Shown piece by piece: positions 857 to 39,185 of a DNA stretch of 64,000 nucleotides (position 1 is its first letter; each line of letters starts with the position of its first letter). A program made the position numbers and the translations under genes. The DNA comes from Nitrososphaerota archaeon (GTDB taxonomy: Archaea; Thermoproteota; EX4484-205; JAAOZP01), in contig JAAOZP010000017.1 in NCBI GenBank assembly GCA_011605725.1, positions 128,001 to 192,000 on the forward strand, written 5' to 3'. Under the pieces are notes generated by a model. It was not told the DNA's origin. It searched no databases and saw only the letters and a list, made by a program, of their open reading frames with translations.

Positions 857-3160
857 TTACTCTACTCGAACACTGCTGAAGAAGACTGTTCTAAAGCCTA
901 TGGTTCTAGCTTCACCCGTAACCTTGAAACTGCCTCTAAGCCTTATGTCCTCTGAAGAAGCGCCGATAAAGACTTCGAATACACCTGGCTCAACCACCAG
1001 CCTCATATGCTCATCGTAGAAGGCGAGCTGCTCAGTGTAGAGCGTGAACTCAACCATCCTAGTCTCCCCTGGCTCAAGACTCAGCCTTTTGAAACCCTTA
1101 AGCTCCATCACCGGCCTAGTGACGCTTGCCACAGGATCCCTCACGTAAAGCTGAACAACCTCGTCGCCCTTCAAGCCACCAGTATTCCTAAGTTTAAAAC
1201 GTATTTTAACACTGCCTGTGGAACTGGCTTCCTGGGGCTCGATCTCGAGAGAACTGTATTCGAAGACCGTGTAGCTTAAACCATGGCCGAATGGGAACGC
1301 TGGCTTAGCATCCATCCCGACGTAGCTCCTGAACGATGAAGGCTTCCTGTTATAGTTCAGCGGAATCTGGCCAGCGTCCTTCGGGAAAGAAACTGGAAGC
1401 CTTCCACCCGGATTATAGTATCCGAAGAGGACGTCTGCAACAGCGTTACCTCCCTCTTCACCAGGGTACCATGCTTCAAGTATTGCTGAACAATTTTCAG
1501 CCATCCAGCCTAGGGAAATCGGCCTGCCGTTAACAAGCACAAGTATAACCGGTTTACCGGTTTTGCAGAGCTCCCTCACCAAATCCTCCTGGACCCCGGG
1601 CAGCCCCAGGGAAAACCTGTCACACCCCTCGCCGGAAACCCCTCTTTCAAACATTCCAGACTTTTCACCCATCACTGCTACCACCACATCCGACTCCAAG
1701 GCTGCTTTAACAGCTTCGCTAAACTCTTCTCTCGACCCCCCGGTGATGTCGCAGCCCTTAGCGTATTTCACCAATATTTTTCCTGAAGCCCTGCTCCTGA
1801 TGCCCTCAAGTATGCTGACCGTCCTAACCGCACCCTCCTTGAAAACCTCGTCGTAGCCAGGCGGCGGGTTAGCCATATCCATGTGAGCCGTGAAACTATA
1901 GTCCCCGTGTAGGTTCCTCTTGCTGTCGGCATTCGGACCTATGACTGCTATCGACTTAACTGTCTCCCGGATCGGGAGGACCCCGTTGTTCTTCAGGAGG
2001 ACGATCGACTCCCTCGCAGCCCTAAGGGCGAGAGCCCTATCCTCATCCCTGTCAAACTGGCTTTTAGCCTCCTCAGGGTTGACGTACGGGTTTTCGAAAA
2101 GGCCTAGTAGAAACTTGGCTCTTAAAACCCTTGAAACCGCCAGGTCTATAAGACCTTCAGAAACCCTGCCCTCTCTAACAGCCTGCAGCAGTGGCTCCCC
2201 GTAGCAGTCTACATGGGGAAGCTCAATATCAATCCCGGCTTGAAACGCCTGGACCGCAGCATCCTTAGCGTCCTTAGCAGTGTTGTGAAAGTTTTCAAGC
2301 ATCCTGATGGCGAAATAGTCTGAGACGACAAACCCTTGGAACCCCCATTCACCCCTGAGAATATCTGTGAGAAGCATTCTGGAGGAGGCGCAGGGAACCC
2401 CGTCTATCTCGTGGTAAGCGTTCATAACCGATAGGACCCCGGCAACCTTAACCGCGGCCTCAAAGGGAAACAGGAAAACCTCTCTCAGCTCCCTAGGGCC
2501 TGCGTGAACCGGGGCACAGTTCCTCCCGCCTTCTGGAAAACCGTGGGCTGCGAAATGCTTGACGGTTGCTATGACACCGTTCCTCAAATCCTCTCCCTGG
2601 AGGCCCTTAACGTAGGCAACCCCCATGCTTGCAACCAGGTATGGGTCCTCGCCATAGGTCTCCTCCGTCCTGCCCCATCTCGGGTCTCTCAGAACATCCA
2701 GAACAGGTGCAAGCCCCTGATGGGCTCCGGAAGCCCTAACCTGCCTCCTTATCACTGAAGCGACTTTTTCAACAAGCTCCGGATTCCACGTGCTTGCTAA
2801 GCCTATCGCCTGAGGGAACACTGTAGCCCCCATCGCTAGGAAGCCTGTTAAACACTCCTCGTGGACGATAGCAGGCACGTGAAGCCTAGTCTTCTCAACC
2901 AGGAACCTCTGGATCTCGTTGGCAATTCTAGCACCATCCCCGGGATTAACCCCTAGGGCTCCTGATAAGCGTGTTAACTCCCCTATGCCTTTTTTAAGCT
3001 CCTCCAGCTTTTCACGCGGCATAGCTGCCACTCCGAAAACCCTTGGCCAGACTGACTGGAGTTGAGCAAGCTTCTCCTCCAGCGTCATCCTTTTCAAAAG
3101 ATCCCTAACCCTGAGCTCAACAGGTGCTGATGAGTCAAGGTAAACAGGCTTATCCTCCAT
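857..3160 (-). CDS. GH3 beta-glucosidase/beta-xylosidase with C-terminal Fn3-like domain, no signal peptide (cytoplasmic)
   Basis: Motifs HEECLTG, RDPRWGRTEETYGEDP, KHFAAHG, VVSDY nucleophile, FGHGLSYT and DEVVQLY. Confidence 0.95.
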   Translation of the reverse strand: MEDKPVYLDSSAPVELRVRDLLKRMTLEEKLAQLQSVWPRVFGVAAMPREKLEELKKGIGELTRLSGALGVNPGDGARIANEIQRFLVEKTRLHVPAIVHEECLTGFLAMGATVFPQAIGLASTWNPELVEKVASVIRRQVRASGAHQGLAPVLDVLRDPRWGRTEETYGEDPYLVASMGVAYVKGLQGEDLRNGVIATVKHFAAHGFPEGGRNCAPVHAGPRELREVFLFPFEAAVKVAGVLSVMNAYHEIDGVPCASSRMLLTDILRGEWGFQGFVVSDYFAIRMLENFHNTAKDAKDAAVQAFQAGIDIELPHVDCYGEPLLQAVREGRVSEGLIDLAVSRVLRAKFLLGLFENPYVNPEEAKSQFDRDEDRALALRAARESIVLLKNNGVLPIRETVKSIAVIGPNADSKRNLHGDYSFTAHMDMANPPPGYDEVFKEGAVRTVSILEGIRSRASGKILVKYAKGCDITGGSREEFSEAVKAALESDVVVAVMGEKSGMFERGVSGEGCDRFSLGLPGVQEDLVRELCKTGKPVILVLVNGRPISLGWMAENCSAILEAWYPGEEGGNAVADVLFGYYNPGGRLPVSFPKDAGQIPLNYNRKPSSFRSYVGMDAKPAFPFGHGLSYTVFEYSSLEIEPQEASSTGSVKIRFKLRNTGGLKGDEVVQLYVRDPVASVTRPVMELKGFKRLSLEPGETRMVEFTLYTEQLAFYDEHMRLVVEPGVFEVFIGASSEDIRLRGSFKVTGEARTIGFRTVFFSSVRVE

Positions 3161-3302
3161 CTTTACTCACAAATTAAGCCACTCTTCTTCAATATTTATG
3201 TTTTCAAGCCGTCGCCACCGCTTAAAGCAAAGAGTTGCGGCTTCAAATCGTTAGAATTAAAATTATTTAAGGCTGAGAAAGCGATTATTGAAAGAGGGAA
3301 CA

Positions 3303-3420
3303 ACGGCTAGAAGACTGACGGTCCCGGATATTGATAAATGCGTCGGATGCCAGCTCTACATGTTCAAGAAGGTTCGGAGAGGCATGGTTCTCCAGGTCAG
3401 CCATAAGCGTTCAATCAGAC
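3303..3420 (+). pseudogene. 5' remnant of a 4Fe-4S dicluster (ferredoxin-like) gene
   Basis: Reads (ACG)ARRLTVPDIDKCVGCQLYMF, then frameshifts into CSRRFGEAWFSRSAISVQS, a broken CxxCxxCxxxC motif. GAGGGA RBS-like and TTATTTAA TATA-like sequences lie upstream. It is truncated next to the stop of the convergent hydrolase. Confidence 0.7.
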
Positions 3421-3423
3421 TTC

Positions 3424-4860
3424 TTACGGGCTACGCGTCATCCCACCCACATGCATGATCTCAGCCTTGAGATTGACGGAAGTAGCCCTCGTAACCAGAA
3501 TCACCCATGGCTCGTCATTTATGTTCACAAGGCCGAAATTACTGTTCTCACCATCGAACCTGCCCTGAGCAGGCTGGTCTGAATACTGAAACCAATGGTA
3601 GCCAACCACATATGGCTCGGAAAGAAGTTTTGCAACGTATTTCTCAAAACGCTCCGCCCTATCTTCCTGTGTCGCTAAAGGTGTTCCAGCACCCTTAGTG
3701 TTCGGCAGCCCCGAATCCCTTGCCTTAAAAGAAAACTCGGTGATAATGACTGGCAGACCAGTTAGACGGTTTATAGCCCTAAGGTCCTCTATGGGAGGCT
3801 CCCAACCATAGTTGTTTATCGAAACCACGTCAGTATAACCGACACATCCCTTTAAAACTTCATCCGGAGGCCTGAATGCGAACCTGCATCCCAAAATAAG
3901 GTGGTTCGGGTCATGTCTTCTTATCGCGTCATGACAAACCTTAAAATACCTTTTCGAAACGACCTCTAGGAAGCCAAGCCTATCCGAATCCAATGAGGCT
4001 CCGCCGGGAGGCTCGTAAACATTCAGGATATCCTCGAAAGAGTTGAAGCCCGTTCCCCATTTAGCGTTAAGCTCCCCTATGTTGCCGTACTTCTCCCTTA
4101 GATACTGGACTAGGGCTTTCTTACCCGGCGCATCTTTTTCAAGGGCAATATAGTCGTCGAAAAGATGCTTAGTAGACCTCCAGTCAGGCCCCCACCTCAA
4201 CTCATTATCTGTGAAGTAGCCTAAGAGATACGGGTCGTCCCTTCTTGAAGCACATATTTCCCCCGCCGCCTCATCAGCCACCTCCTCGAACCTTTTCGAG
4301 AAATAGTCCACAACCTTTCCGCTTAACCATTCTGACCCGGCTTTCGCAGCAATGTCAAGTATTATCGTGTATGGGATTTTAAGCCTGTAGAGCTCGCTGC
4401 TAGACCAGGCGCCTATAGTGTTGAAGCCATAGCTGCGAAGCCTCTCAACAGTGGCTTCAGCCCAAGACTCAGCATGCCCGTATTTCCCTAGAACAACCCT
4501 GTTGTACGGACTGTATCCTAGAGAGGGAGAGTAATCCCCGTCGAAGCTAACATGATTCACCCCTTTAGATATGAAGCCGTTTCCCTCAGGATCTATAATC
4601 CACCAGACGCCGTTAATCTTCTCAACGTGGAAGAAGCCTGTAGCTGTACCTTTAACACGCAACGTCCCACCGTAAGAATCATAGAAGAGGATTGATATAA
4701 GGCTTGCCAGGCTTTTAAAGCTTTCACTGTGTTCAGCGAGCTGACGGTTAAGCTCCCTGACTGATTGCATTGAAACGGATAGGTTGTAGAGTGAAAACGC
4801 TAGGATTATCAGCATGATTACGAGGAGCAGGCGCATCATCTTAAAACTCGACGTCATCAA
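3424..4860 (-). CDS. Exported/membrane-anchored clan GH-A glycoside hydrolase, agarase-like (GH50/GH42-related)
   Basis: Hydrophobic N-terminal segment, then TGFFHVEKINGVWWIIDPEG, GFNTIGAWS, GYFTDNE (acid/base), ITEF (nucleophile), VGYHWFQY and DGENSNFG. Exact start (4860/4857/4839) uncertain. Confidence 0.8.
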   Translation of the reverse strand: MMTSSFKMMRLLLVIMLIILAFSLYNLSVSMQSVRELNRQLAEHSESFKSLASLISILFYDSYGGTLRVKGTATGFFHVEKINGVWWIIDPEGNGFISKGVNHVSFDGDYSPSLGYSPYNRVVLGKYGHAESWAEATVERLRSYGFNTIGAWSSSELYRLKIPYTIILDIAAKAGSEWLSGKVVDYFSKRFEEVADEAAGEICASRRDDPYLLGYFTDNELRWGPDWRSTKHLFDDYIALEKDAPGKKALVQYLREKYGNIGELNAKWGTGFNSFEDILNVYEPPGGASLDSDRLGFLEVVSKRYFKVCHDAIRRHDPNHLILGCRFAFRPPDEVLKGCVGYTDVVSINNYGWEPPIEDLRAINRLTGLPVIITEFSFKARDSGLPNTKGAGTPLATQEDRAERFEKYVAKLLSEPYVVGYHWFQYSDQPAQGRFDGENSNFGLVNINDEPWVILVTRATSVNLKAEIMHVGGMTRSP

Positions 4861-4930
4861 ACGGTCTTACGCCGCCGTTTTTAAAAACTTTCCGTCAGAC
4901 TTAACCAACTAATACGTGAAAAGGATTGTG

Positions 4931-4946: not shown

Positions 4947-4952
4947 TGGTTT

Positions 4953-7052
4953 TTACGGTTTGAACAGGGTTTGCATCTTCGGGAATACTACTCCAAGGTT
5001 CAGCAGCGCAGCGGGCAGCCACATGGCGCCGAAGCCCAGGATCCATCCTGCTACGATAGGCATAGCATACTCCTCATACCTCTTTATTCCAATAGTCCTG
5101 ATCACGACGAATTTTATTATTAACGCGATCAGCGAGGTGAGCCACATGTATGTCGGTATAGTCATGGATATGTAGAGCGCTGGAACGCTTATGAACCAGA
5201 AGAACGGAACCTTAAGCTTCAATATGTAGAGCACGAGCGCCAAAAGTATCCCAAGGCCATAGCATATTCCAAGAGAGTATTCTACTGTCAGCTCCGCCGG
5301 CCCAGCCCACCTGCCTCTATGGTAGTAGCCTGCAGCCATCCAGGGCCACCATGTGAACACACGGTCACTCAGCTGGTTGACACCGCCCTGCGTGTTGAAG
5401 ATGAAATAGGTGTCCAGCGGAACAAACACGAAAAGCAGCACAACCATGCCGATGATCAAAGCTATCAGGAAGTCCCTCATCCGCATCTTGAGCTCGTAGG
5501 CAAGCTTGTAAAGCGTTACTTGGAACCCGCCGGACAATGGGCCGAAGGAAACGTTCCAGTGGCCAGCGTTCGCCATATGCCTAGCTATCGTGAACCAGGC
5601 TGGGTCAGTCATAGGCGTGTCCCAAGTTACGGCGGTGGGCGCAGGCCACCCTCTTAGGGCTGACCCAACTACGTAAGTCGGGTCCCAGGCGGCGGGGCCA
5701 GCACCCCAGCCTGTTCCAACGTGCCAGAACACCTCCGCGTATACCCTAGCGTAGGTCACGTGGAAGACGAGTGCCCATAGTGGCACCAGGAGGGCGATCA
5801 ACGGGTCTGCTCCTTCAATCAGCATTAACGCGTACCATCCGAACGCGCCTATAAGTAGTAGCAATGGGATTGTTCTCATGGATAGACCCCTCTCCTCCCC
5901 TCCCTTCCACAGGGATGAGAAGACGCTTGCAAACCTCTTCCTCTGAGTGTAGAGGCACCATATCGCTATTCCAAGGCCCACGCCGGTTGAAGCAACATAC
6001 CTGTATGGGAAGGGCATCCATACTCCCGGGTATGATTCCCAAGGCCAAACGTACTCCATTCCAGCCTGGTATGCGACTATGCCCATGCTTACGCCTATGC
6101 CCTGGTAGAGCACGCCGAAGATGATCCAGCCGAGTATCAGGGTTATCAGAGCATCGTTAGGCATAACCAGTCCCACGGCTATCTGAGGTATGAAGAATAT
6201 TGCTGAAGCATATATCCCGGGCCAGAGCGCGGCGAGGAAAGGCAGGTTCACATTCTGCTCACCCCACCATGCGGACGCTGGGAACTCCGGCCAGAGCTCA
6301 GCTATCAAGGGCTGTATTCCGCTTATCATGCCTATTACGAACATGCCCCAGAAAATCTTTGAAGTTGGAACCTTGAAGTTGAAGAGCCTAGACTTGTTGG
6401 TAGTGGGATCAATCTCACCCGCTTCCCTGAACAGGTAGAGAGATGGAACAGCCAGCGGGAAGATTAGCCTCTCCTCCTCAACCCAGACCTTGCCGAATAC
6501 GAATGTCACGAAAATGCTTATGAAAGCGTAGAACATGTAGACTAGGCCCCAGTATATTATTGCGTTCATTATGTAGCCCCATGGAACAGTTTGCCCAGGA
6601 GCCTTACCGTTCATCAGCATCGTAGCAATCTCGAAGCGTACCGGCTCAGGAGCAATTACGACTGCTGGAACAGCCTTGCTCCAGTAGTCTCTCAAGGCGT
6701 CGATCGAGAACGCTTCGTAATCGCTTAGGGCACCGTACACGGGCATGCTTAAAGGATTATTATGGGCTGCGGCATGCATCGTAAGGTAGGAGTGCATCCC
6801 TAGGAATGAGATGACTGAGAATACGAAAACCAGCTCCTGCGGCGTCAGCCTCATCTTAGGATTGGCTCTCCCTAGGAGTTCAAATATCACGACTAAGTAC
6901 ACCATAGGTAGGATGAAGGTACCGAAAGTAGACGTCTTATCAGTATATAGGCCTACTACAACCGACATGTATGCGAAGAATATTGCGAGGGGGATGGAGA
7001 TGGCGAGTGATTTTGCTGTTAAACCTGTTCTCAGCTCTACTTCAGTAGCCAT
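4953..7052 (-). CDS. OPT-superfamily-like polytopic membrane protein (DUF6785-like), putative transporter subunit
   Basis: Hydrophobic throughout with many TM segments. Motifs TGLT, LTPQEL and EEERLIFPL are shared with 12521..14434. GGTGA RBS upstream. Confidence 0.7.
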   Translation of the reverse strand: MATEVELRTGLTAKSLAISIPLAIFFAYMSVVVGLYTDKTSTFGTFILPMVYLVVIFELLGRANPKMRLTPQELVFVFSVISFLGMHSYLTMHAAAHNNPLSMPVYGALSDYEAFSIDALRDYWSKAVPAVVIAPEPVRFEIATMLMNGKAPGQTVPWGYIMNAIIYWGLVYMFYAFISIFVTFVFGKVWVEEERLIFPLAVPSLYLFREAGEIDPTTNKSRLFNFKVPTSKIFWGMFVIGMISGIQPLIAELWPEFPASAWWGEQNVNLPFLAALWPGIYASAIFFIPQIAVGLVMPNDALITLILGWIIFGVLYQGIGVSMGIVAYQAGMEYVWPWESYPGVWMPFPYRYVASTGVGLGIAIWCLYTQRKRFASVFSSLWKGGEERGLSMRTIPLLLLIGAFGWYALMLIEGADPLIALLVPLWALVFHVTYARVYAEVFWHVGTGWGAGPAAWDPTYVVGSALRGWPAPTAVTWDTPMTDPAWFTIARHMANAGHWNVSFGPLSGGFQVTLYKLAYELKMRMRDFLIALIIGMVVLLFVFVPLDTYFIFNTQGGVNQLSDRVFTWWPWMAAGYYHRGRWAGPAELTVEYSLGICYGLGILLALVLYILKLKVPFFWFISVPALYISMTIPTYMWLTSLIALIIKFVVIRTIGIKRYEEYAMPIVAGWILGFGAMWLPAALLNLGVVFPKMQTLFKP

Positions 7053-7080
7053 AAGGTTTTCACCTTCGTTTAGTTATACA

Positions 7081-7155
7081 TTTGCAAAATTTAAACTTTA
7101 CGCATGTAAACTTTGTTCCATAGAGCCAGACTTTAAAAATGGGTTTGCAAACCCA
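7081..7155. promoter_or_regulatory. Divergent promoter with TTTGCAAA-core palindromes
   Basis: TTTGCAAA at 7081-7088 and a perfect 16-bp palindrome TGGGTTTGCAAACCCA at 7140-7155. Each lies directly downstream of a TTTAAA TATA-like box for one of the two divergent genes. Confidence 0.55.
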
Positions 7156-7198
7156 CGGATGAATATGCAACCCCTTCCACTCCCGAAGTTAGATTTAT

Positions 7199-7885
7199 TT
7201 GGCGAAAATTCAATGGCATAGGGTAATGTCGTGGGTTCAAAGCGTGAAGAGGGCTCTTGAAAAGTATGAAGTGTCTTTTGAGGAAACAGGCAGGGGAAAC
7301 CTTGTTGTAAAGCCCGTTGAAAACCCGCAGATAAAGCTGATTATCCTCGTGAGAAGGATGCAGTTCAGCTTTGAAAGGAAGTTTGAAATCACCGGTGTGC
7401 TTGAAATCCCTGAAGAAAGGCTTGAGAAACATGATAAGCGTCAGCTTTTAAGAAGGATGCTTTCAGAGTCTGTGGAACTGGAGTTGAAAGGCGTTTTGAG
7501 AAGAAGCGTGAAGGCCAGCAAGTGGAGTGGACTCGCATCACTAACCGGGATAAACATGCCCGAGGAGGAGGGTATTATGCGAGTCATCGGGACCAAGGAT
7601 TTTGAGGAACTGGTTAAGAGGGGGGGAGGCGACTTGATAGAAATCTTTCCATCCATCATACCGGTCGAACTGTTCGAAACATACTTGATGGCTTCAGACA
7701 GAGGGCTGATAACCAGCAGCCTTGTTAAAAAATACTTGGAGGATCCTCAATCCATATCTTGGATCGTGAGGATGCACATGCTGTATGGCCTCCAGTCTCC
7801 GGGAGTGGTTCAGAAAGCATTCCTCACCGTTGTCAACTTGCTTAAGAAAATAGAGGAGTATACTTACACTACGCTTTTGCCATAG
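7199..7885 (+). CDS. Hypothetical soluble protein embedded in the transporter locus
   Basis: 228-aa ORF (TTG start) with protein-like composition. Its 3' end overlaps the convergent 1517-aa gene by 17 nt. No recognisable motif. Confidence 0.65.
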   Translation: MAKIQWHRVMSWVQSVKRALEKYEVSFEETGRGNLVVKPVENPQIKLIILVRRMQFSFERKFEITGVLEIPEERLEKHDKRQLLRRMLSESVELELKGVLRRSVKASKWSGLASLTGINMPEEEGIMRVIGTKDFEELVKRGGGDLIEIFPSIIPVELFETYLMASDRGLITSSLVKKYLEDPQSISWIVRMHMLYGLQSPGVVQKAFLTVVNLLKKIEEYTYTTLLP

Positions 7886-10800
7886 ATATGTAGCTTGCTT
7901 TCTCAGCCGCTGAGAAGGATCCCCACATTATCAGCTGTTTCCTCAACTCGTTTACAAACCTGTAGTTCGAAGTTACCCATGTGCTCTGCGGCCCGGTAAG
8001 CCTCTCCAGGTGAAGCACGACATCATATCTTTTCACCTCCTCGTTCAGCCTTGCAGCAATATCAACCCTTTGAGAAACACCTACTTCAAACGGTGAGAGG
8101 CTGACTGTCAAGCTTAACGATAGATCCTCGTAGTTCGGGGGCTGCAGCTCCTTAACCATGTGAACACCCTCTTTAACAGCTCCCGCACCAGAGAAATACT
8201 CGTGTAAATATGCTAGAAGCCCTCTTCCCTCCTCGATTGTCGAAACGCTGATGAGCAGAGGAATATCCCACTCGTTACCCTTAGGCTTAGTTTTAAACTT
8301 CCATCTCCTCTCAAGCGAGGGCGTGGCTACTTTCGAAGCCATGTAAGACGGGTATGCGGCTGCCGCTAGGGCTGACGCCATCGTTACCAAGGTTCCCAAT
8401 ATTGCGAATGCTGAGGCGAAGTTGAAAACGTGTTCAGAGGGTAGTATTCCGAGAAGCATGAATACCCTTGTCATGAAGTATCCAGCAATATACCCTACTA
8501 AAGCGCTTACTACCGCATAGACCAGAACCTCCGTCATGAAGAAAACGGTTACACCCATCGGGGATAGGCCGACGATGCTGAATATATGGACTTCCCTAAC
8601 ACGCTCCCTCAGACTGCCAAGTACTGTTGTAAATATGTTGAGCGCTCCAAGGATAACTATCATCCATATTATTTCCCACCCTCCCAGCAGCACTGTGGTG
8701 AAGGTTGAAAGCAGATACGGCTTTCCCTCATGGGAAACGTATATTGACAAGTCTAGGGAGTAGGCCAGCTCCTTAGCCAGGCTGAATACCTCTTCGAAAG
8801 ACATTTTCTCCTTCGGCACTAAGGCTATTGAAGCAATGTACCCCCCGATCATCAATGCCCTCTTGTACGGTATTATCATTGTTGTTGAAACACCGAGGTT
8901 TGGAGGAGAAGACCCGGCTTGAGCAGAGACAGCCATGTCCCTGCTTATTGTCGGGAAGAAACTCGGGTTAGCCGGGAAAATATTGTAGCCATCCGCCTCC
9001 TGTAGGAAATCAACCTCGTTTGAATCAATTATCCCGGTCACCGTGAACCTGATGCCTGAAACGTAAATAGTATCCCCTATTGTTACGCTCAAGTTAGTCG
9101 CCAGAGACCTGGATATCACCGCCTGATCAGCATCGTCGGAAAGCAGCCCACCCCTCACGATGCAGGTGCCCCTTACAATCCGGTTGAACTCCTCCACGGT
9201 CATCCCCATTATCGCAGGAATTCTCGAAGTGTTGGTTGCACTCCACACTCTGAAGGAGGTGGTCCATGCAGCCCTATCCACTGGACCGTAGATCCATACT
9301 CTCGGGAAAACATAGTATTTGTCTGCAGCGAATATTTTCGCAATATCTAGAATCTTGTCTGAAAGAATGTTCGGGGGAACACCTCTCCCCTGCTTTATTA
9401 GGATCTCATCCCTATAGGAGTTACACTCGTACCCATATCTGGTGACTGGCACAGTTACCCTCCCAGGCATCAGCGAGGTGAAGGAAGTCATGGCTATAAC
9501 CATAGTGATCAACGTTATGAAAACCAGTATTGCGCGGAAAGGCCTGCGACGCATATGTTCACTCCCTAGGGAGAAAGATATCATCGCCGTGTCAAGCCTG
9601 CTTACTTCAGCCCTGTGGACGCCGAGGACACGCTTCTCAATGCCTTTCCTAACCTCCTCGCTTATCGAAAGTATTATTATGAACACGATTAGGATGACGA
9701 TCAGTATTAGCGAGCCCATCATGCCCAGCGATATATTGCTCATTAGCCCGAATGCTGGATGCAGAATGCCGAATAAAGCTAGGAATATTGCTGAGAGAAC
9801 AGCGATTGCAACAATACGCCTTGAGCCGTGAGCCTTGATGACGAGCTTCTCAAGGAAGAAGGCGCCGAATATGACGAGGATAAACATGTAGAGGAGAGAC
9901 TTCGCCGAATCGTTTATCAAGGGCATGACTTCAACGGAGTAAGCTCTAACTGCGTATGCTCTTGCTAGAAGAGCGTAAGCATACATGCCGCTGTATTCCT
10001 TCCTAGCTAAACGCTTCTCAACCTCCTCTATGTATTTCCTAGCCTTGTTCAGCGTTTCATCCGCGCTTGGGCTCCCCATGTTTCTCTTAACCAGCTCAAG
10101 ATACCGGCCGTATGAAACGTAGTAAAGGTCTTTAGCAGTACTGAAAGTGGAGAAGCGGATCCTTTCCTTCTCCCCATAATTCACGTAGAAACCGCTTCCC
10201 TCCGTGTTTTCAAGCGAAGAATTCGTTAAAAGTATCCCAGTCGGGCTGGCGACTACGAACCTTATTCCAGGCTGAACCCAAACTATTGAAACAGGCTCCC
10301 AACCGTTAGAATAATACCCGTAGCTTATGGGCGGGCTTTTAGTAAGCATCTCAAACGAGGACACCATAACCGGTTGAGGCGGGCTCCTCCACATTTCGAA
10401 CGCGCCGGCCCTAGGGTCAATTATGCTGGGCGTCATTATGACGGTTGGGATTTCGAAATCCAACACCTCCATGGAAACAGCTTTAGCAATAACTACAGTA
10501 ACATTCTCGTAAGCGTGTAGGACAGTTATCTCAAGCGGGAAGTTCATCATGCCGAACTGTCCCAAGTCAGTAGCCATCGTGATAACGCCCTCCTCGTTGA
10601 AAACCCACCCTCTAGCGATCCATCTTGAGAATATTACTGCAGTCCCTCCTCCCCCGGCTGCGCCAGAAATAGGCACTCCATGGACGGTGAAAGACCCGTC
10701 CTCACCGCTTTTCATAACTATCCTGTTAAGCTTGTAGGTTGAAGTAACCAGTCTCACTTCAACCAGGGCACCGGGAACCCCGTCGTACCATCCTTTACTA

Positions 10801-12422
10801 TAGTTATAGATAACAACCCGGCCTTGAAGAGCAGCATACCCGGGGTATGCCCTCGTGTTGGAAAGCAGAAACCTTGTTGGCTTGATCGAGGCCCTATCTA
10901 TATTCCACTCCATCCGTAGAAGCCTGTCAACAATATGGAGGGCAAGTTGGAAGTATGGGTCTAAAACTTCTACATTAGCATAGCTCGAATCGTCAATGGG
11001 GGAGCCCACGTAAATCCTGTTTGAACGCCTGGTTGTTATGGAGAAAGCCGGTATACCTGCGATCGAAGCAGGCTCAGAATCCAGCATGAACGGTATCGGC
11101 TCAGTCCCTGAAAAAACGTTGTATTGGAAGAAGATGCTTACAAGCGAGGAGATGAATGTGCTTGACGAGGCTGAAACGTTAATGTTCGGCATTCTCCTCG
11201 CGAAGCCTCTGACTTCAGGCGTGTCAACTATACTCCCTATGGTTGTGCTAAACCATGAGAGCCTCAGCGGGAAGCCGCCGCTGTGTATGGCTGTCCCCCC
11301 GTAGGTTGAGTACTGGCTTGCGTGAAGAAGCTGAAGGCCGTCGGAGTCGCTCGCCATAAGGTCGAAATTTATGTTTCCGAGAATCGTTATCTTCCCACTG
11401 CTCACATCCCCTCTGAAAAAGTAGTCCTCGACAAACTCTCTCGAGCCGCTTAGCGCCTGCCAGTGTCCGGAGTAAAGCGTTACCCATACTGAATACCTAG
11501 GCGGGTTGGCCTTGAGGTGACGGGCATACTCGAGTAATAAAGCCAATGGTAACAGCTCAGTCTTGCTCGCCGACAAGCCTGGGACAACAGACCACGAGTC
11601 GAAATGTGCAGACAGTATGACGACCTCGTTAGGCGAAGCCGTGCCATTTATAAACCCAACTATGTTTTCAGCCTCAACCTCCCTCCAAGCCATTCGGGAA
11701 ACGATCCTAACCCGGGTGGCGGTTTTCAAAACATCCCAATCCTGCTTCTTAACGTAGACCCTCGTGAAACCCATGGGAGTATCTAGGAATTTAGCGTAGC
11801 ACTCCTGATAGGTTGTTTGCTCCGGCTCTATGAATATTACGGCCTCGGCTCCCAGGTTAACTGCTTTAAGCCAGTTATCCCGAGAATTAAACTCCATAGC
11901 AACTATGCTACCCTCCACATTCTTCCCATCTAACTCCTGCAAGTCGCCTCCCCCAGCGTAAATCAGGCTTCCAACTATCCCGCCGGACGGGGTTGGGCAA
12001 GGGTTAACACCGTTAGGATAAAGCGCGTAAGCGTTAAACCTGGCTTTAAAAGGCTCTAAAGCCTCGACATAGGTCTCCTCATCATAGGGCACCAGTACCT
12101 TATACTTGTGTTTCTGGGTCACTATCCCCACATCATTCTTAAGATAAGAGTAAAGGTATTCCAGCGTCTTGTAGTAGCCCGGGTAACCAGTCATCCTAGA
12201 ACCATAGGAAGACACTTCTGCCACAAACCTGTTCATCCAAGCCGTGTCTATCGGAAACAGTTCTTCGTCAGCTGAAACAGGACTTTTGAAAGCAGAATTC
12301 AAATCAGGCTTTAAAGATGTGTAGTATTGCTGCCCATAGATTGGTGGAACCTGTGTGACAGATATTAAGAGGATGGATAGGGAGAGAAGCAGTATCGACA
12401 TGATCTTAATCCTGCCAGCCAT
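7869..12422 (-). CDS. Giant membrane protein: signal peptide + PA domain + degenerate M28-peptidase-like domain + TM bundle + MacB-like extracytoplasmic domain + FtsX permease domain + cytoplasmic C-terminal domain
   Basis: GSRMTGYPG, IYAGGG...GAEAVIF (PA), ENIVGFING...VVILSAHFDS (M28 fold), MRRRPFRAILVFITL (MacB TM1) and SLRERVREVHIFSIVGLSP (FtsX motif). Confidence 0.85.
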   Translation of the reverse strand: MAGRIKIMSILLLSLSILLISVTQVPPIYGQQYYTSLKPDLNSAFKSPVSADEELFPIDTAWMNRFVAEVSSYGSRMTGYPGYYKTLEYLYSYLKNDVGIVTQKHKYKVLVPYDEETYVEALEPFKARFNAYALYPNGVNPCPTPSGGIVGSLIYAGGGDLQELDGKNVEGSIVAMEFNSRDNWLKAVNLGAEAVIFIEPEQTTYQECYAKFLDTPMGFTRVYVKKQDWDVLKTATRVRIVSRMAWREVEAENIVGFINGTASPNEVVILSAHFDSWSVVPGLSASKTELLPLALLLEYARHLKANPPRYSVWVTLYSGHWQALSGSREFVEDYFFRGDVSSGKITILGNINFDLMASDSDGLQLLHASQYSTYGGTAIHSGGFPLRLSWFSTTIGSIVDTPEVRGFARRMPNINVSASSSTFISSLVSIFFQYNVFSGTEPIPFMLDSEPASIAGIPAFSITTRRSNRIYVGSPIDDSSYANVEVLDPYFQLALHIVDRLLRMEWNIDRASIKPTRFLLSNTRAYPGYAALQGRVVIYNYSKGWYDGVPGALVEVRLVTSTYKLNRIVMKSGEDGSFTVHGVPISGAAGGGGTAVIFSRWIARGWVFNEEGVITMATDLGQFGMMNFPLEITVLHAYENVTVVIAKAVSMEVLDFEIPTVIMTPSIIDPRAGAFEMWRSPPQPVMVSSFEMLTKSPPISYGYYSNGWEPVSIVWVQPGIRFVVASPTGILLTNSSLENTEGSGFYVNYGEKERIRFSTFSTAKDLYYVSYGRYLELVKRNMGSPSADETLNKARKYIEEVEKRLARKEYSGMYAYALLARAYAVRAYSVEVMPLINDSAKSLLYMFILVIFGAFFLEKLVIKAHGSRRIVAIAVLSAIFLALFGILHPAFGLMSNISLGMMGSLILIVILIVFIIILSISEEVRKGIEKRVLGVHRAEVSRLDTAMISFSLGSEHMRRRPFRAILVFITLITMVIAMTSFTSLMPGRVTVPVTRYGYECNSYRDEILIKQGRGVPPNILSDKILDIAKIFAADKYYVFPRVWIYGPVDRAAWTTSFRVWSATNTSRIPAIMGMTVEEFNRIVRGTCIVRGGLLSDDADQAVISRSLATNLSVTIGDTIYVSGIRFTVTGIIDSNEVDFLQEADGYNIFPANPSFFPTISRDMAVSAQAGSSPPNLGVSTTMIIPYKRALMIGGYIASIALVPKEKMSFEEVFSLAKELAYSLDLSIYVSHEGKPYLLSTFTTVLLGGWEIIWMIVILGALNIFTTVLGSLRERVREVHIFSIVGLSPMGVTVFFMTEVLVYAVVSALVGYIAGYFMTRVFMLLGILPSEHVFNFASAFAILGTLVTMASALAAAAYPSYMASKVATPSLERRWKFKTKPKGNEWDIPLLISVSTIEEGRGLLAYLHEYFSGAGAVKEGVHMVKELQPPNYEDLSLSLTVSLSPFEVGVSQRVDIAARLNEEVKRYDVVLHLERLTGPQSTWVTSNYRFVNELRKQLIMWGSFSAAEKASYISMAKA

Positions 12423-12450
12423 GTCTTTTGTAAAAATGGAAGTAGACCGG

Positions 12451-12484
12451 CTTATAAGTTTTTAGCAAATTAAAAATTTTTATA
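12451..12484. promoter_or_regulatory. Compact divergent promoter (two BRE/TATA boxes)
   Basis: AAAACTTATAAG on the minus strand ~29 nt before ATG 12422, and AAAAATTTTTATA on the plus strand at 12472-12484. Confidence 0.6.
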
Positions 12485-12520
12485 TTGGAGCATCACGGTG
12501 GAAATCGAGGTGAAGGGCCC

Positions 12521-14434
12521 CTGACGGAAGCCTCGCAGGAATTTTCACCGGGATTGACTTGGAGAAGCATCCTAGCAATGATAATGGCTGCACTAATCTT
12601 CCTGCCCTCCTCAATATACTTATGGTTTGCAGTAGGATCCGGAGTGAGCACAGCCGCAACCTATGTGACAGCAATACTTTTCACAGCCTTAACACAGATT
12701 TACGGCAGGAGGCTTTCAAGACAGGAGCTTTTCATAATATATTCTATCGTAGGAGGAATAGGCGGAGCCATGCCCATGTACTACTGGCTTGTCTACAGGT
12801 CTTACTACGTTACTAATCCTTTAAGCCTAGAGTTCAAGCTTTTCAACACCCCATTAAGGGAATATGTTCCCACATGGATGTCTCCCCCAGCAACTTCAGT
12901 CGTCCACCAGCTGAGAACCCTGTTGCATCCAGACTGGTTTTTCGCCCTAGGCGTAAACCTTGCCTTCTCAATCCTGGGCCTGGCAGCAGAACTATCCATA
13001 GGCATACTGTTCTCCTACCTGTACGTGGTGGAGGAGCCTCTGCAATTCCCGTTCGCACAGATCGACACAGCCATGGTGAACACTCTGCACGACAGGAGGC
13101 CTCAGGACCTGCTTTACTTCATCCTGTCTCTAACGATTGGAGCAATATACGGCTTAATACTTTACCTGGCGCCTATGCTCATCGGCCCCCAGGCGCGTTT
13201 AATCCCATACCCCTGGGTTGACTTAACACCCTACACGCAGTTCTTCCTGCCTGGGGCTGTAATAGGCATAGCAACAGACCCGTTGAGCTTCCTCTACGGC
13301 ATGATCCTGCCTCCCTCGCTGACTTTCGCTATGCTCGTGGGGTCAGTAATCACATGGATCTTCGGAAACACTCTTACTCTAACAACCTTCAAAAGCTTCT
13401 CTCCCCAGTGGGTTGAGGAGTATTCACCAGGGATGGGAATATTCCTGATACTTCAGAGAGCAGGCTTAAGACTCTGGCTCTCCCTGTTCATGGGTCTATC
13501 CTTCGGCCTAGCGATCTATCTTTTAGCCGCGACAAGCAAGAAGATCCTTGCAGCTTTCAAAACACTTCCGAAAATAAGCAGGCTGAAGGGTGGGCCAGGA
13601 TATCCTTCACCAAGGATACTGCTCGCCACATTCTTCTGCTCCACCGTTTTAAGCGCACTGCTCTACAATATTCTCCTCCCGGATGTTCCATTGTGGCTCC
13701 CCATAATTGTTTCAGTAGGGTTCAGCTTCGTCCTAGCGTCTGTCGGCGCCAGGATTTATGGTGAACTCGGGCTGACCTTCTCCGCCGACTTCATATACAA
13801 CATGTGGAAAGCAGCCATATACTTCAGTCCCTACAATGGCTATGCTGGATGGATTTTCACACCCGCCATAGCGGGCTTCTCCACACCATACTTTGCAAAC
13901 TCCACAAAGGTGGCGTATGCGACTGGGACAAGACCCATGGACTATTTTAAGGCAGTCATAATATCATTCATACTGGTAACAACGTTCGGCCTTATATTTA
14001 CAGACTTCTTCTGGAGAATAGCTCCAATACCCTCCTACTTATTCCCATACGTGTACGGTATTTGGCCGAACTATGCCATCAGCGACTCGCTGTTTGCAAC
14101 CCGGCAGATACTCATAAAGCCGGACCAGATACTGATGGGAATGGGCATATCCATCGGCGTCAGTCTTGTTTCAATCCCGTTAAACAGGCTGGGAATACCG
14201 TTTAACCCGGTTGGGCTAGTCGGCGGAATGTACAGCACGCCACCCTACACGGTTATGCTGTTCCTAATGTCGCTTGTAAGCAAGTATTTAATGACGCGTA
14301 TACTCGGTCCGGAAAAATGGTTGTCAATAAGAGGCATTGTGCTAGCAGGATTTGCAGCAGGCATAGGTATTGTAGTAGCAATGGGAACCACGATCACTCT
14401 GGTTTCAAGAGCCTCATGGATATGGCCCTGGTAG
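12521..14434 (+). CDS. OPT-superfamily-like polytopic membrane protein (paralogue of 4953..7052)
   Basis: Motifs PGLTWRS, LSRQEL, VEEPLQFPFA, IPYPWVDLT and FFWRIAPIPS, with many TM segments. The ORF-track start is TTG 12485; I favour CTG 12521 (see findings). Confidence 0.75.
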   Translation: MTEASQEFSPGLTWRSILAMIMAALIFLPSSIYLWFAVGSGVSTAATYVTAILFTALTQIYGRRLSRQELFIIYSIVGGIGGAMPMYYWLVYRSYYVTNPLSLEFKLFNTPLREYVPTWMSPPATSVVHQLRTLLHPDWFFALGVNLAFSILGLAAELSIGILFSYLYVVEEPLQFPFAQIDTAMVNTLHDRRPQDLLYFILSLTIGAIYGLILYLAPMLIGPQARLIPYPWVDLTPYTQFFLPGAVIGIATDPLSFLYGMILPPSLTFAMLVGSVITWIFGNTLTLTTFKSFSPQWVEEYSPGMGIFLILQRAGLRLWLSLFMGLSFGLAIYLLAATSKKILAAFKTLPKISRLKGGPGYPSPRILLATFFCSTVLSALLYNILLPDVPLWLPIIVSVGFSFVLASVGARIYGELGLTFSADFIYNMWKAAIYFSPYNGYAGWIFTPAIAGFSTPYFANSTKVAYATGTRPMDYFKAVIISFILVTTFGLIFTDFFWRIAPIPSYLFPYVYGIWPNYAISDSLFATRQILIKPDQILMGMGISIGVSLVSIPLNRLGIPFNPVGLVGGMYSTPPYTVMLFLMSLVSKYLMTRILGPEKWLSIRGIVLAGFAAGIGIVVAMGTTITLVSRASWIWPW

Positions 14435-14510
14435 AAAACAGTGTCTGAAAACTGGTTTCCCCCTAGGCTGTGTTTTCGAACATTCAGGCCTGAAACCTGC
14501 TCCCAGTTTT

Positions 14511-14548
14511 AAGACTTATATCTTCTTGACAAAGCCTGTTTAAACAGG
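14511..14548 (+). promoter_or_regulatory. TATA box plus 14-bp perfect palindrome abutting the start codon
   Basis: AAGACTTATAT at 14511-14521 and CCTGTTTAAACAGG at 14535-14548, immediately before ATG 14549. Confidence 0.5.
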
Positions 14549-17266
14549 ATGAAGAAAACATTTTTAATCCTGCTGACAATAGGCCTGATTGCTTCTCTAA
14601 TCTTACTCCAAAACCTATTTAAACCCGTGAAGCTTGAGGAACGAGTGTTTCCCTTCTATCTCCCCTGGGATGACAGTGAGCAGACTGTGATAAGTATGAG
14701 CAGTAGTCTCCCTAAGCCGGCTGGTAGCCTTGGACACGTTTACGTTGGGGAGGACGGACACCTATATGTTAACGGTGGAAGAGTGAGGTTTCTAGGAGTC
14801 AACATCTGCGGAGGAGCATGTTTCCCTGAGAAGGATGAGGCTGAGAGGATAGCCAGAAGGCTTGCTAAATTCGGGGTCAACGTGGTGCGTTTCCACCATA
14901 TGGATGCAAACTGGGAGGTTTTTAACATATTTGACAAGACCACTGGGGGTACACGTCGCCTAAACAAGGATGCGCTCGACAGGCTTGACTACTTTATTTC
15001 AAAGCTTAAGGAGAACGGCATATATGTTGACCTGAACCTGCTCGTGTCGAGAAGGTTTACTTCTGCAGACGGCTTACCTGGAGAAGTGGAGACGGTAGAC
15101 TGGAAGGACCAGCAGGTCCTCGGGTTTTTCCTCAAAGAGTTTGAAGAGCTTGAGAAAGAGTATGCTAGGCAACTCTTAACCCATTTAAACACCTATACTG
15201 GAATGACTTACGCTGAGGACCCTGCAGTGGCCTTCGTTGAAATAGTGAACGAGCAGGGGCTTATTCATTCTTGGCTTGGCGGCGTTATCGACAGGCTTCC
15301 AAACTTTTTTAAAAACAGGCTTCAGGAGAAGTGGAACGCCTATTTGAGTTCGAAATACTTGTCTGACGAGGAGTTTAGAAAGGCGTGGAGGGTTGAAGCA
15401 GACCCGGGAGCTCAGGCCGAGGTTCTGAGAAACGGCTGCTTCGAAAATGGTTTGGAGGGATGGGTAGTTGAGGTTCATAACGGTGCGCAAGCATCCGGAA
15501 GAGTAGTTGAGGAAAACGGGGGAAGGATTCTGGAGATAAAGGTTACGAGACCCGGTTCAGAAAGCTGGCATGTGCAGTTCAACCAGCCTGGTTTAAGAAT
15601 CAGGGAGGGTGAAAACTATCTTGTCAGGTTTAGGGCTAAGGCTGATAAAACGGTTAGCGTAAGCGTGAGCCTAGTTCAGGCGCACGAGCCATGGAGGCTA
15701 GTTTCGCAAAGGGTTGAAGTATCGCTGACAACAGAGTGGAAGGAGTACGAGGTGGCTCTAGTTGCGTCAGAGTCAGAGGATAATGCTAGGCTAGACGTTT
15801 CAGGGCTCGGCGGGAACATAGCAACCTACCTTTTCTCCTGCTTCTCCATGAGGCTTTTCAGCGGGTACGGGCCGATGGAGGATGAGAGTGTTGAAAAGGC
15901 GAACGTTAGGATACTGACGCTTGCCGAATACGGCTTAAGGACGAGTGCAGCCAGGAGAGACTGGGCTGAATTCCTGTACATCACGGAGGAAGAGTTTTTC
16001 ACGGAGATGTGCAGATTCGTTAAAGATGAGCTCGGTGTGAAAGCCCTGGTGATAGGTACTGTAGTTGGGTGCAGCACGCCGAACATAATGTCTAAGCTCG
16101 ACATTGTAGACACGCATGCCTACTGGAATCATCCCTCCTTCCCAGGAACTCCCTGGGACCCTAGCAACTGGTACGTGGTTAACGAGCCGATGGTTAACAA
16201 CCCTCAGCGAAGCACTATAGTAAGCCTGGCTGTTAAGAGGGTTGTGAACAAGCCTCACTTCGTCACCGAATACAATCATCCTGCTCCGAACATGTATGAT
16301 TCTGAAACAGTCGTAACGCTAGCAGCGTATGCTGCACTGCAAGACTGGGATGGAATCTTCCTTTTCGACTACGGAAGCCGTGGCGACTGGGACTCTCGAA
16401 GGATAAGAGGGTTTTTCGATATTGACCAGCATCCCGTTAAAATGGCGAGCATGATAGCTGCGCACATGATATTCTTGAGAGGCGATGTTAGGCCTGCTGA
16501 ACAGCTTGTTTCCGTAAGGCTCGGTAGACAGGACGAAATAAACCTGATAGCGGCGGGAAAGGTTTACGCTTGGGCGCTGCCGGACGGTGGCCATATGGGT
16601 TTAAACCCATTGGTCTCCCTCACGCATAGAATAGCCGTCAGCCTCGAGGAGGAAGATTCTCGCGAGACTGGTTCCAGTGTTTCCGGGCCTGTCTACCGCT
16701 CTGACACCGAGGAGATCACTTGGGACACGTCTGAGTCTGGAAGAGGCATCATCACAATAAATACTTCGAGAAGCATAGCTGCCGTAGGCTTCACCGGGGG
16801 CAGGAGCCTAGACTTCGGAGAACTCGTTATCGAACCGGGTGAAACGCTTCTAGAAGGCTGGAGCCTCATAACAGTCTCAGTGCTGGAGGGAGAAAGCTTC
16901 GATTCCTGGAGGAGGCTGCTGGTGATAGCTGCCGGCTACGTTACTAACACTGGGATGAGGCTCCGCACGTATGAGGGGAACACAGCCTTATTAACTTGGA
17001 GACTAAACGGTTTAGCCGGTGTGAAAACAGCTGTGGAGCCCATAACCTGCGGCACTAACTGGGGTTCGGCCCCAACGCTAGTGGAGGGGGCTAGGGCAAC
17101 GCTGAAGATTAGAACGGACGGAGAAATAGAAGTATGGGCATTAGATAGCGTGGGAAAAAGAATAAAACGGGTTCAGGTTTCTAGTGAGGGACAGTATAAA
17201 GTTTTTTCAATCGGCCCCGATTTCCAAACCATCTGGTATGAGATAGCTCAATCCGAAACCGGTTAA
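14549..17266 (+). CDS. Exported clan GH-A glycoside hydrolase with a CBM4/9 inserted in the catalytic domain (GH148-like beta-glucanase architecture)
   Basis: Signal/anchor peptide, then VRFLGVN, VRFHHMD and EIVNEQG (acid/base). CBM4_9 insert LRNGCFENGLEGW...WHVQFNQ...YLVRFRAKA...LTTEWKEY. Then DTHAYWNHP, VTEYNH (nucleophile) and QDWDGIFLFDY. Confidence 0.8.
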   Translation: MKKTFLILLTIGLIASLILLQNLFKPVKLEERVFPFYLPWDDSEQTVISMSSSLPKPAGSLGHVYVGEDGHLYVNGGRVRFLGVNICGGACFPEKDEAERIARRLAKFGVNVVRFHHMDANWEVFNIFDKTTGGTRRLNKDALDRLDYFISKLKENGIYVDLNLLVSRRFTSADGLPGEVETVDWKDQQVLGFFLKEFEELEKEYARQLLTHLNTYTGMTYAEDPAVAFVEIVNEQGLIHSWLGGVIDRLPNFFKNRLQEKWNAYLSSKYLSDEEFRKAWRVEADPGAQAEVLRNGCFENGLEGWVVEVHNGAQASGRVVEENGGRILEIKVTRPGSESWHVQFNQPGLRIREGENYLVRFRAKADKTVSVSVSLVQAHEPWRLVSQRVEVSLTTEWKEYEVALVASESEDNARLDVSGLGGNIATYLFSCFSMRLFSGYGPMEDESVEKANVRILTLAEYGLRTSAARRDWAEFLYITEEEFFTEMCRFVKDELGVKALVIGTVVGCSTPNIMSKLDIVDTHAYWNHPSFPGTPWDPSNWYVVNEPMVNNPQRSTIVSLAVKRVVNKPHFVTEYNHPAPNMYDSETVVTLAAYAALQDWDGIFLFDYGSRGDWDSRRIRGFFDIDQHPVKMASMIAAHMIFLRGDVRPAEQLVSVRLGRQDEINLIAAGKVYAWALPDGGHMGLNPLVSLTHRIAVSLEEEDSRETGSSVSGPVYRSDTEEITWDTSESGRGIITINTSRSIAAVGFTGGRSLDFGELVIEPGETLLEGWSLITVSVLEGESFDSWRRLLVIAAGYVTNTGMRLRTYEGNTALLTWRLNGLAGVKTAVEPITCGTNWGSAPTLVEGARATLKIRTDGEIEVWALDSVGKRIKRVQVSSEGQYKVFSIGPDFQTIWYEIAQSETG

Positions 17267-39181: not shown

Positions 39182-39185
39182 TCCT

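Follow-up and report, generated by a model that had tools for sequence, protein, structure and literature searches.

How might a polymer-degrading archaeon take up sugar fragments when the gene cluster that serves digestion holds no classical carrier? The question is raised by positions 857-17266 of a 64,000-nucleotide stretch (the window) of contig JAAOZP010000017.1 from a hot-spring Nitrososphaerota archaeon (assembly GCA_011605725.1), where three membrane-protein genes are located among the host's genes for sugar-polymer digestion. This trio consists of a 699-amino-acid (aa) permease of the DUF6785 family (OPT-like A), a 1517-aa protein with an M28-like head and a MacB/FtsX module (the giant), and a 649-aa permease that defines the p649 family (OPT-like B). 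An initial annotation of the window had pictured surface glycanases that release oligosaccharides, a giant that captures them, an OPT-like pair that imports them and a GH3 enzyme that completes hydrolysis. Here we report that the three membrane genes are a near-obligate module and a new combination of known superfamilies (OPT, MacB/FtsX and M28/PA, in the window beside GH3, GH50 and CBM4_9). We give an about even chance to the explanation that this is a proton-driven or trans-energised oligosaccharide uptake module, with the OPT-like pair as the conduit and the giant as an extracellular platform.

A tblastn search found the trio five times in the genome of the window (G000), on contig C7, which carries the window copy, and on C3, C13, C5, and C2. 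At C3, C13, and C5 the genes run in the order OPT-like A, giant, OPT-like B on one strand; the C2 order is identical, plus an antisense gene resembling the 228-aa gene of the window (p228) between OPT-like A and the giant. All four further copies of OPT-like A adjoin a giant. When 26 genomes of the class were sampled, a profile of the giant C-terminus matched 25 of them (1-13 matches each); some of these matches are other FtsX giants, and a genome has at most about 8 full trio giants. The copy numbers of OPT-like B follow those of the giant, and about 64 of its 78 class copies lie directly beside a giant (as read from two coordinate lists), the remainder being mostly fragments or at contig ends. 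In G006, a genome of another family, 6 out of 7 giants belong to full trios, and the seventh is accompanied by OPT-like B and an unrelated 787-aa membrane protein; the latter was considered as an OPT-like A and rejected because it is not DUF6785-like. Class-wide profile and sequence searches found neither giant nor OPT-like B in G010, a 1.3-Mb genome (92% complete) of the same genus as the host. The arrangement is also present on bacterial contigs (4.6 Mb and 110 kb), where a giant, a DUF6785/6784 gene and a 656-aa OPT-like gene stand in a row with CarboxypepD_reg or TonB-like neighbours. The linkage of the three membrane genes is thus consistent across the five loci here, six of the seven G006 loci, and bacteria, as the initial annotation would have it. 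Literature searches for DUF6785, DUF6784, FtsX with M28 and OPT, and FtsX with OPT found no paper on the module, in keeping with the earlier view of it as an undescribed system, and a recent paper on polysaccharide-degrading Thermoproteota lists ABC transporters and 'porters' only and leaves it unmentioned.

What kind of proteins are the two permeases? OPT-like A (4953-7052, minus strand) matches Pfam DUF6785 only (72 bits), and OPT-like B (12485-14434, plus strand) has no Pfam match of its own. Plain BLASTP aligned the 699-aa and 649-aa proteins over just the last 180 residues (E 0.005). When a profile was made for each family with members from this and other genomes, the two aligned end to end (hhalign 99.8%, E 5.8e-30, 575 columns); OPT-like A and B are therefore ancient paralogues. 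The p649 family has 456 representative clusters at E <= 0.001 (50% library). OPT is the sole Pfam family matched in 28 of its members, 11 of which pass the threshold (best E 1.3e-17), and the C3 paralogue of the 649-aa protein scores 38.6 bits (cut-off 25.8). Kinship with the OPT superfamily (PF03169) is therefore found at the family level, via p649, and the description of the pair as paralogous OPT-like polytopic proteins (about 11-14 hydrophobic segments) is correct at the superfamily level. Sequence-profile searches of PDB with both families reached no solved structure. OPT-like A and B probably operate as a heterodimer. Fused giant-OPT proteins were found neither among longer proteins, which is weak evidence, nor among the best 150 p649 representatives. 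The start of OPT-like B was placed at the TTG codon at 12485, giving 649 aa; in the public annotation the L012 orthologue, 97% identical, has only 618 aa. The longer reading is the more probable one, because the shorter call would remove a conserved N-terminal G-x-T-x-R motif common to DUF6785.

The giant (7869-12422, minus strand) begins with a signal peptide or anchor, followed by a PA/M28-like head, a middle ectodomain of ~420 aa, three extra transmembrane (TM) helices, a MacB/FtsX module (TM1, the periplasmic core domain (PCD), and TM2-4), and a conserved cytoplasmic tail of ~150 aa. Pfam matches to Peptidase_M28, MacB_PCD and FtsX, its homologues, and the fold of residues 930-1517 bear out its earlier description as a PA/M28-MacB/FtsX fusion. 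A model of residues 930-1517 (pLDDT 81.7) resembles MacB, LolC/E, YtrF, HrtB, and FtsX (Foldseek E down to 5e-14), with VIA Z of 13-19 (5xu1 19.0, YtrF 17.8, MacB 17.7, LolC 15.6) and large root-mean-square deviations that come from domain orientation. The PCD (aa 1048-1172, 8907-9281) matches the periplasmic domains of MacB, LolE, YknZ, and LolC at VIA Z 10.6-12.8. Both Pfam and the model show the four-helix FtsX fold that characterizes type VII ABC systems, in which TM1 and TM2 are separated by an extracytoplasmic domain. The segment TM2-TM4 (aa 1251-1364, 8331-8672) contains the coupling-helix (CH1) motif ERxRE(V/I): ERVREV of the giant aligns with ERTQEI of YtrF and ERTKEI of MacB, and also with LolC, and 24 archaeal and bacterial giants all keep its E and R. 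In MacB, CH1 lies in the TM2-TM3 loop and makes the main coupling to the ATPase (PMC8277102). After TM4 comes the tail domain (aa 1376-1507, 7902-8297), whose motif TPSLERRWK..PTKPKG is conserved from archaea to bacteria. Modelled at pLDDT 85-93, this 130-aa alpha+beta domain looks KA1/helix-grip-like, with borderline best matches (VIA Z ~8) to KA1, BamC-N, and Bet v1/Aha1-like folds; it is not a nucleotide-binding domain (NBD). ESM Atlas look-ups for the tail domain and p228 gave no usable lead.

The head of the giant is M28-like in its profile and unusual in its metal site. Its core (aa 253-365, 11328-11666) belongs to a domain that scores 36.5 bits with the M28 profile, is found in all five paralogues, and aligns weakly with the GCPII-like protein NAALADL1 (4twe). 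Alignment columns of the site were counted over 66 giants from archaea and bacteria. The column of the bridging Asp never has Asp; its residues are A, G or S, with a few others. The Glu-Glu pair is replaced by His (65/66) and then Trp or Phe, so that the giant heads lack the full set of co-catalytic zinc ligands and catalytic Glu of M28 peptidases. Other residues are kept, namely H273 (58/66), D275 (66/66), D354 (62/66), and G326 and R328 (66/66), and H320 is also conserved. Judged from these columns, the site is remodelled, not decayed, and is not that of a standard di-zinc peptidase.

Type VII permeases are expected to have a cognate ABC ATPase fused to them or encoded beside them, and the initial annotation had called for a survey of co-occurrence between the membrane genes and a LolD/MacB-type ATPase. 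This association was not borne out in cis. Four of the five G000 trios lack any ABC_tran gene within 15 kb, and the C2 trio has only an unrelated double-ABC gene 6 kb upstream. No ABC ATPase gene was seen at the seven G006 loci nor at eight giant loci with DNA from other assemblies (L010, L012-L015, L029-L031). AAA_15/AAA_21 genes near some giants (C5, L029) were considered as NBDs and rejected; they look like inserted defence-type genes. The one exception is the metagenomic locus L028, the only one with a LolD-type ATPase near a giant, in which a small FtsX and the ATPase are encoded five genes downstream of the giant and OPT-like gene. Here a single strand (L028:397-11111) encodes the giant, DUF4190, DUF2752, an OPT-like protein, TatA, a 300-aa protein, a PqqD-like protein, a 202-aa FtsX, and the LolD-type ATPase. 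Homologues of the 300-aa and PqqD pair lie 5 kb upstream of the C5 trio (L007:1446-2940). The L028 ATPase is 68% identical to a G000 ATPase that follows a small 231-aa FtsX (G000:C10:57025-58462). This arrangement and likeness make it conceivable that a small-FtsX/ATPase half-transporter pairs with giants, as in LolC/LolE. Class-wide searches never placed the C10-type pair on a giant's contig, and the pair is kept in G010 as well.

An inventory of G000 gave 14 FtsX-domain matches, which include three canonical systems with an adjacent LolD-type ATPase, the five trio giants, and five more large FtsX proteins of 855-1794 aa. Four of these five have no ATPase nearby, and the one on C12 lies 4 kb from a double-ABC gene. 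The four LolD-type ATPases of the genome form a group of 50-61% identity, and one of them is an orphan: G000:C11:54087-54869 (minus strand; L017:4087-4869), situated between Cgi121 (KEOPS) and RLI/ABCE1 and without a permease neighbour. A search of the 25 other class genomes found its orthologue, at 72-96% identity, in 24 of them. One of these is the giant-less G010, in which both FtsX genes have ATPases of their own and the OPT-like gene is absent too; a dedication of the orphan to giants was rejected on this ground.

The sugar context begins with the enzymes that flank the window trio. An ORF map reproduced the coordinates of all seven open reading frames (ORFs) at 857-17266 exactly, and each of the seven is a real gene. 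The GH3 exo-glycosidase (857-3160, minus strand, 767 aa) has complete GH3_N, GH3_C, and Fn3-like domains in Pfam and no signal peptide; its best NCBIfam model is a beta-xylosidase/alpha-L-arabinosidase, below the cut-off. Next to it is a 478-aa clan GH-A glycosidase (3424-4860, minus strand) with a hydrophobic N-terminus predicted to act as a membrane anchor. Its Pfam clan GH-A signal is weak, and a phmmer search of PDB aligned residues 124-469 with the characterised GH50 catalytic domain of Aga50D (4bq2, E 9e-54), a homology that points to GH50 membership. On the far side of the trio, a 905-aa enzyme (14549-17266, plus strand) carries a signal peptide, a CBM_4_9 module (53 bits in Pfam; laminarinase module 1gui at 6.5e-12 in a PDB sequence search), and a catalytic part of clan GH-A with a weak, distant GH5-mannanase-like signal (1.8e-5). 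Domain and localization predictions thus agree with the earlier picture of two exported clan GH-A enzymes and a cytoplasmic GH3 around four non-CAZyme (carbohydrate-active enzyme) genes. These four do form two divergent pairs, separated by gaps at 7053-7225 (between OPT-like A and p228, given the alignment-based p228 start) and 12423-12484 (62 bp, between the giant and OPT-like B), and a Pfam scan of the window genes confirmed that the cluster contains no SBP, MFS, or SSS gene. The GH50-like gene is retained beside the DUF6785 gene in the orthologous loci L012 and L013, and in eight class genomes no more than 12 kb separates a GH3 orthologue from the orthologous giant.

Other copies of the module have other neighbours. 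The C5 type has GH130 directly downstream and a helix-turn-helix protein upstream, an arrangement kept in G006 and so in two families. In the C13 type, GH38 is downstream, Asparaginase_2 and a sugar-isomerase-like TIM barrel are upstream, and a GH42-like gene is two genes away. GHL10 follows the C3 type; the C2 type is followed by DUF5107-TPR, with GH38 12 kb away. L015 has GH127, MFS, and GFO_IDH, and the G006 loci include TrmB, galactokinase, a sugar-isomerase-like TIM barrel, and an enolase-superfamily enzyme, with nothing sugar-related at one of them. When each locus type was counted once, 6 out of 16 positions immediately adjoining the module (+/-1) held a glycoside hydrolase or phosphorylase, compared with 2 out of 42 other scanned genes in those regions and the rest of the window (one-sided Fisher p = 0.004, a post hoc test on a small count). 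In a Sus-like polysaccharide-utilization locus (PUL), CAZymes would cluster with a dedicated uptake system, and the initial annotation had expected a CAZyme enrichment near the module. The enrichment is seen at the immediate flanks in this archaeal order, but is weak when approached from the CAZyme side and absent in bacteria. The sugar link is real in this order but loose, and it is not a universal property of the module. The apparent location of the partner enzymes, cytoplasmic for GH3, GH130, and GH38 and exported for those of clan GH-A, fits the import direction.

The explanation to which we give an even chance would then run as follows. Outside the cell, a beta-linked polysaccharide would be cut by two enzymes, one anchored in the membrane (GH50-like) and one secreted (CBM4_9/GH5-like). 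Oligosaccharides, the presumed substrate class, would be imported by the OPT-like pair with the proton-motive force as the drive, and the cytoplasmic GH3 would complete hydrolysis. In putative contact with both permeases, the giant would serve as an extracellular platform, either to hold substrate or pass it on, or to gate the permeases; its small conserved cytoplasmic tail domain sits where type VII ABC systems dock the ATPase. Each copy in this order is tied to a different carbohydrate-catabolic gene set. A bolder version sees here a new importer class, in which an ATPase-less MacB/FtsX module with a tail domain instead has been rewired to an OPT-fold heterodimer for receptor-coupled, proton-driven oligosaccharide uptake and has multiplied in PUL-like fashion in this order; we advance it tentatively, as rather doubtful.

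Several observations weigh against oligosaccharide uptake by this module. We know of no OPT family member that carries sugars. The M28-like pocket is nearly invariant across the five paralogues and in bacteria, and the most variable parts of the giant among the paralogues are the middle ectodomain and the PCD; head, TM2-4, and tail are the most conserved (33% identity) and the middle ectodomain the least (24%). Since the pocket hardly varies and variation lies elsewhere, a substrate-specific receptor role of the head is doubtful. The proposed capture of oligosaccharides by the giant was accordingly not supported, such a pocket being unlike a glycan-specific site, and glycan capture by the head is the weakest step of the explanation. 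From the enzyme side, a giant is found within 12 kb of only 8 of 90 class GH3 genes, all eight being orthologues of the window locus, and for GH38 the figure is 3 out of 58; the share of the genome within such windows by chance is roughly estimated at ~4%. Orthologous loci in other lineages (L014, L021, L030) lack an adjacent glycoside hydrolase, the neighbours being TrmB and HAD at L014 and an enolase-superfamily gene at L021. No CAZymes were seen at the bacterial loci on the contigs scanned. The genome also has many classical ABC importers (45 ABC_tran matches), one of them 20 kb from the locus.

The nearest rival differs from our explanation only in the energy source and in the activity of the giant. 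It holds that the giant is an ATP-driven type VII machine with its motor in trans, either the C11 orphan or the C10 small FtsX and ATPase as heterodimer partner, and that its mechanotransmission feeds, extracts or gates substrate outside while the OPT-like pair carries the products in. The (near-)invariant CH1 motif, at the position where MacB couples to its ATPase (PMC8277102), the MacB/LolCE/YtrF/FtsX fold at Z 13-19, the supply of four LolD-type ATPases with one lacking a permease neighbour, and the L028 arrangement with its C10-like ATPase all speak for such a motor, against which stand the missing ABC_tran genes near four of the five own loci, the G006 loci and the eight other loci. The conserved domain that follows TM4 also occupies the place where CH2 and the NBD would sit, and the C10-type pair is never on a giant contig in the class. 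Both candidate ATPases are kept in G010 (84% and 61% identity to the orphan query), so that neither is dedicated to giants, and a shared role is possible. We regard this rival as a serious contender that is still more probably wrong than right; the wider proposition that the module uses ATP at all falls a little short of even.

Two further rivals change the substrate or the direction. If the module were an importer of peptides, glycopeptides or metal chelates, the canonical OPT substrates, its peptidase-like head would bind peptides, and the nearby carbohydrate genes would reflect glycopeptide use or general CAZyme richness. The OPT kinship, the conserved His/Asp of the M28/PA head (possibly a single-metal or ligand site), and the bacterial loci without CAZymes are consistent with this, as is the C13 copy, where Asparaginase_2 (the glycosylasparaginase family) and GH38 fit N-glycopeptide breakdown. 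We consider it unlikely: the canonical M28 catalytic set is gone (bridging Asp to A/G/S, Glu-Glu to His-Trp/Phe), peptidase or amino-acid catabolic genes were not found at any scanned locus, and sugar-specific TrmB, galactokinase, GH130, and GH127 stand beside other copies. Alternatively, the module could serve export, envelope maintenance, or sensing, for instance by handling S-layer or glycan building blocks, or as a transceptor that informs the cell of polymers outside and whose FtsX part controls extracellular enzymes. Besides the FtsEX precedent discussed below, one could cite the KA1/helix-grip-like tail, which could be regulatory (Z only ~8), the likeness of p228 to transport-factor and chaperone folds, and the fact that known MacB/FtsX systems act outward and do not import (PMC8277102). 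This is quite improbable in our estimation, given that there are up to ~8 copies per genome, set beside catabolic rather than biosynthetic genes, and that sensing alone hardly accounts for two full-size permease paralogues in each module. The loss of the module in the reduced genome G010 further argues that it is not essential for the envelope.

Comparison with known systems places the module between several of them. Like the type VII ABC systems (MacB, LolCDE, FtsEX, YtrEF, HrtBA, BceAB), residues 930-1517 of the giant have the four-helix FtsX fold, a MacB-type PCD, and the CH1 motif; unlike them, the giant lacks an ATPase gene in cis throughout this class, adds a 900-aa ectodomain, three TM helices, and a conserved non-NBD tail, and is always encoded with two OPT-like permeases, while the known members do not import. 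With the OPT/Yellow-Stripe-like superfamily (PF03169, TC 2.A.67) the permeases share their polytopic nature, the Pfam OPT threshold passed by 11 of 28 p649 members, and the full-length homology of DUF6785. They differ from it in being very divergent, to the point that neither window protein passes the OPT threshold or matches a solved structure by sequence, and in forming an obligate paralogue pair with a giant partner, in a carbohydrate rather than a peptide or metal-chelate context. The analogy to SusC/SusD logic drawn in the initial annotation concerns co-localization: as in Bacteroidota Sus PULs, surface glycanases, a presumed uptake device, and an intracellular exo-glycosidase are encoded together, and the system has been multiplied per genome with different enzyme sets. 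It is an analogy only, without homology; the SusC/SusD Pfam families were not found among the window genes, the host has no outer membrane, and the window contains no regulator, TrmB being present in related loci. FtsEX controls extracellular hydrolases via a catalytically dead peptidase-like partner (EnvC, PcsB), and the coupling of an FtsX-type module to a degenerate extracellular metallopeptidase-like domain is similar here. In the giant, by contrast, the head is of the M28/PA type instead of LytM/M23 or CHAP and is fused in cis to the FtsX module; the partners are permeases, and there is no ATPase nearby. TRAP and TTT transporters are secondary carriers that rely on a binding protein. They may have one principle in common with the module, in that a capture protein outside the cytoplasm supplies a secondary permease, but they share no homology with it, and a capture role of the giant is putative.

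If the uptake explanation is true, polymer-degrading archaea such as Brockarchaeota-like hot-spring lineages take up sugar fragments by a transporter type absent from textbooks, made from two families never before linked, OPT and MacB/FtsX. It would provide the first carbohydrate substrates for the OPT superfamily and would mean that a type VII ABC membrane module is able to work, or be reused, without its own ATPase. Outside a sugar context the module is widespread in uncultured bacteria, and insight into it in this archaeon would supply an annotation for hundreds of genes labelled 'DUF6785/6784' or 'M28 family peptidase / FtsX-like permease'.

The fourth non-CAZyme gene of the locus, p228, was described initially as a 228-aa soluble protein. 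It is a real gene and its product is cytoplasmic, but the length is likely 219 aa, from the ATG at 7226 (7226-7885, plus strand, within the ORF 7199-7885). It runs antisense to the giant, with a 17-bp overlap at the giant stop codon. Three orthologues (93%, 48%, and 34% identity, the last with E 8e-43) are each antisense at a giant 3' end, at loci whose giants are 97%, 65%, and 57% identical to the window giant, and L030 has a 231-aa gene in the corresponding antisense position. Distant relatives were found at the C2 locus in the position given above (E 2e-4) and in G006 (hhalign 80%, E 1.4e-5). The family is small and confined to Thermoproteota, one member being labelled Candidatus Brockarchaeota. 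The p228 model (pLDDT 86, pTM 0.87) gave VIA matches to DR_1245 (Z 9.8), TtfA (Z 8.6), and many type III secretion system chaperones (Z 7-8.4), which would make it a secretion-chaperone/YbjN-type fold; with such middling Z values, the likeness to secretion chaperones, YbjN and TtfA is a lead and not a family assignment. Foldseek with the p228 model returned nothing at E <= 0.001. A complex prediction of giant residues 930-1517 with p228 scored 0.01, which weighs neither way as controls were not run. We view p228 as a cytoplasmic accessory protein specific to this lineage, which might act as a chaperone in assembly or as an adaptor.

FtsX modules also occur in this lineage apart from the trio. 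Relatives of ~1800 aa (P0063-P0065) have GH2 domains joined to a matching FtsX module, and their loci, which lack OPT-like genes, contain a GH12 or housekeeping genes. Such a union of a glycosidase with a MacB/FtsX module would in itself be unusual. In this lineage, FtsX modules seem to provide the membrane platform for glycan-active domains outside the cell, a point in favour of the uptake explanation. An FtsX giant of 1794 aa, encoded outside the window at G000:C3:~145200-150600 (minus strand), falls into the size class of the GH2-headed homologues. Within the window, a 1072-aa protein (24223-27441, plus strand) has a C-terminal FtsX domain, an ectodomain of no recognisable family, and no ATPase gene nearby, and is one of the ATPase-less large FtsX proteins of G000 counted above. 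It exemplifies a second kind of FtsX giant, which like the trio giants lacks an ATPase but unlike them has no OPT-like genes beside it. Similar frames of 980-1110 aa recur in many class genomes.

Other genes border the locus. On the GH3 side there is a NurA - HerA-like (DUF87) - Mre11-like (Metallophos) gene row (window 2-784, minus strand, and L012:21682-24554). Directly after the CBM4_9 enzyme (17301-19045, plus strand) are a KaiC-like ATPase (PF06745) and an overlapping 304-aa gene without a known family. A KaiC-like/DUF7125 gene is also close to the orthologous locus L014; the KaiC-like ATPase (17301-18134) was rejected as a general module partner, being missing at the other four trios and L013. 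About 20 kb away (37218-44158, minus strand) is an Opp/Dpp-type ABC importer with an 815-aa SBP_bac_5 protein, a BPD_transp_1 permease adjoined by a further 354-aa gene, and two ATPases; importers of this type are the classical archaeal route for oligosaccharides or peptides. Finally, positions 35306-36958 (plus strand) encode a 550-aa NosD/right-handed beta-helix protein with a weak pectate-lyase-like match, which is possibly exported and polysaccharide-active.

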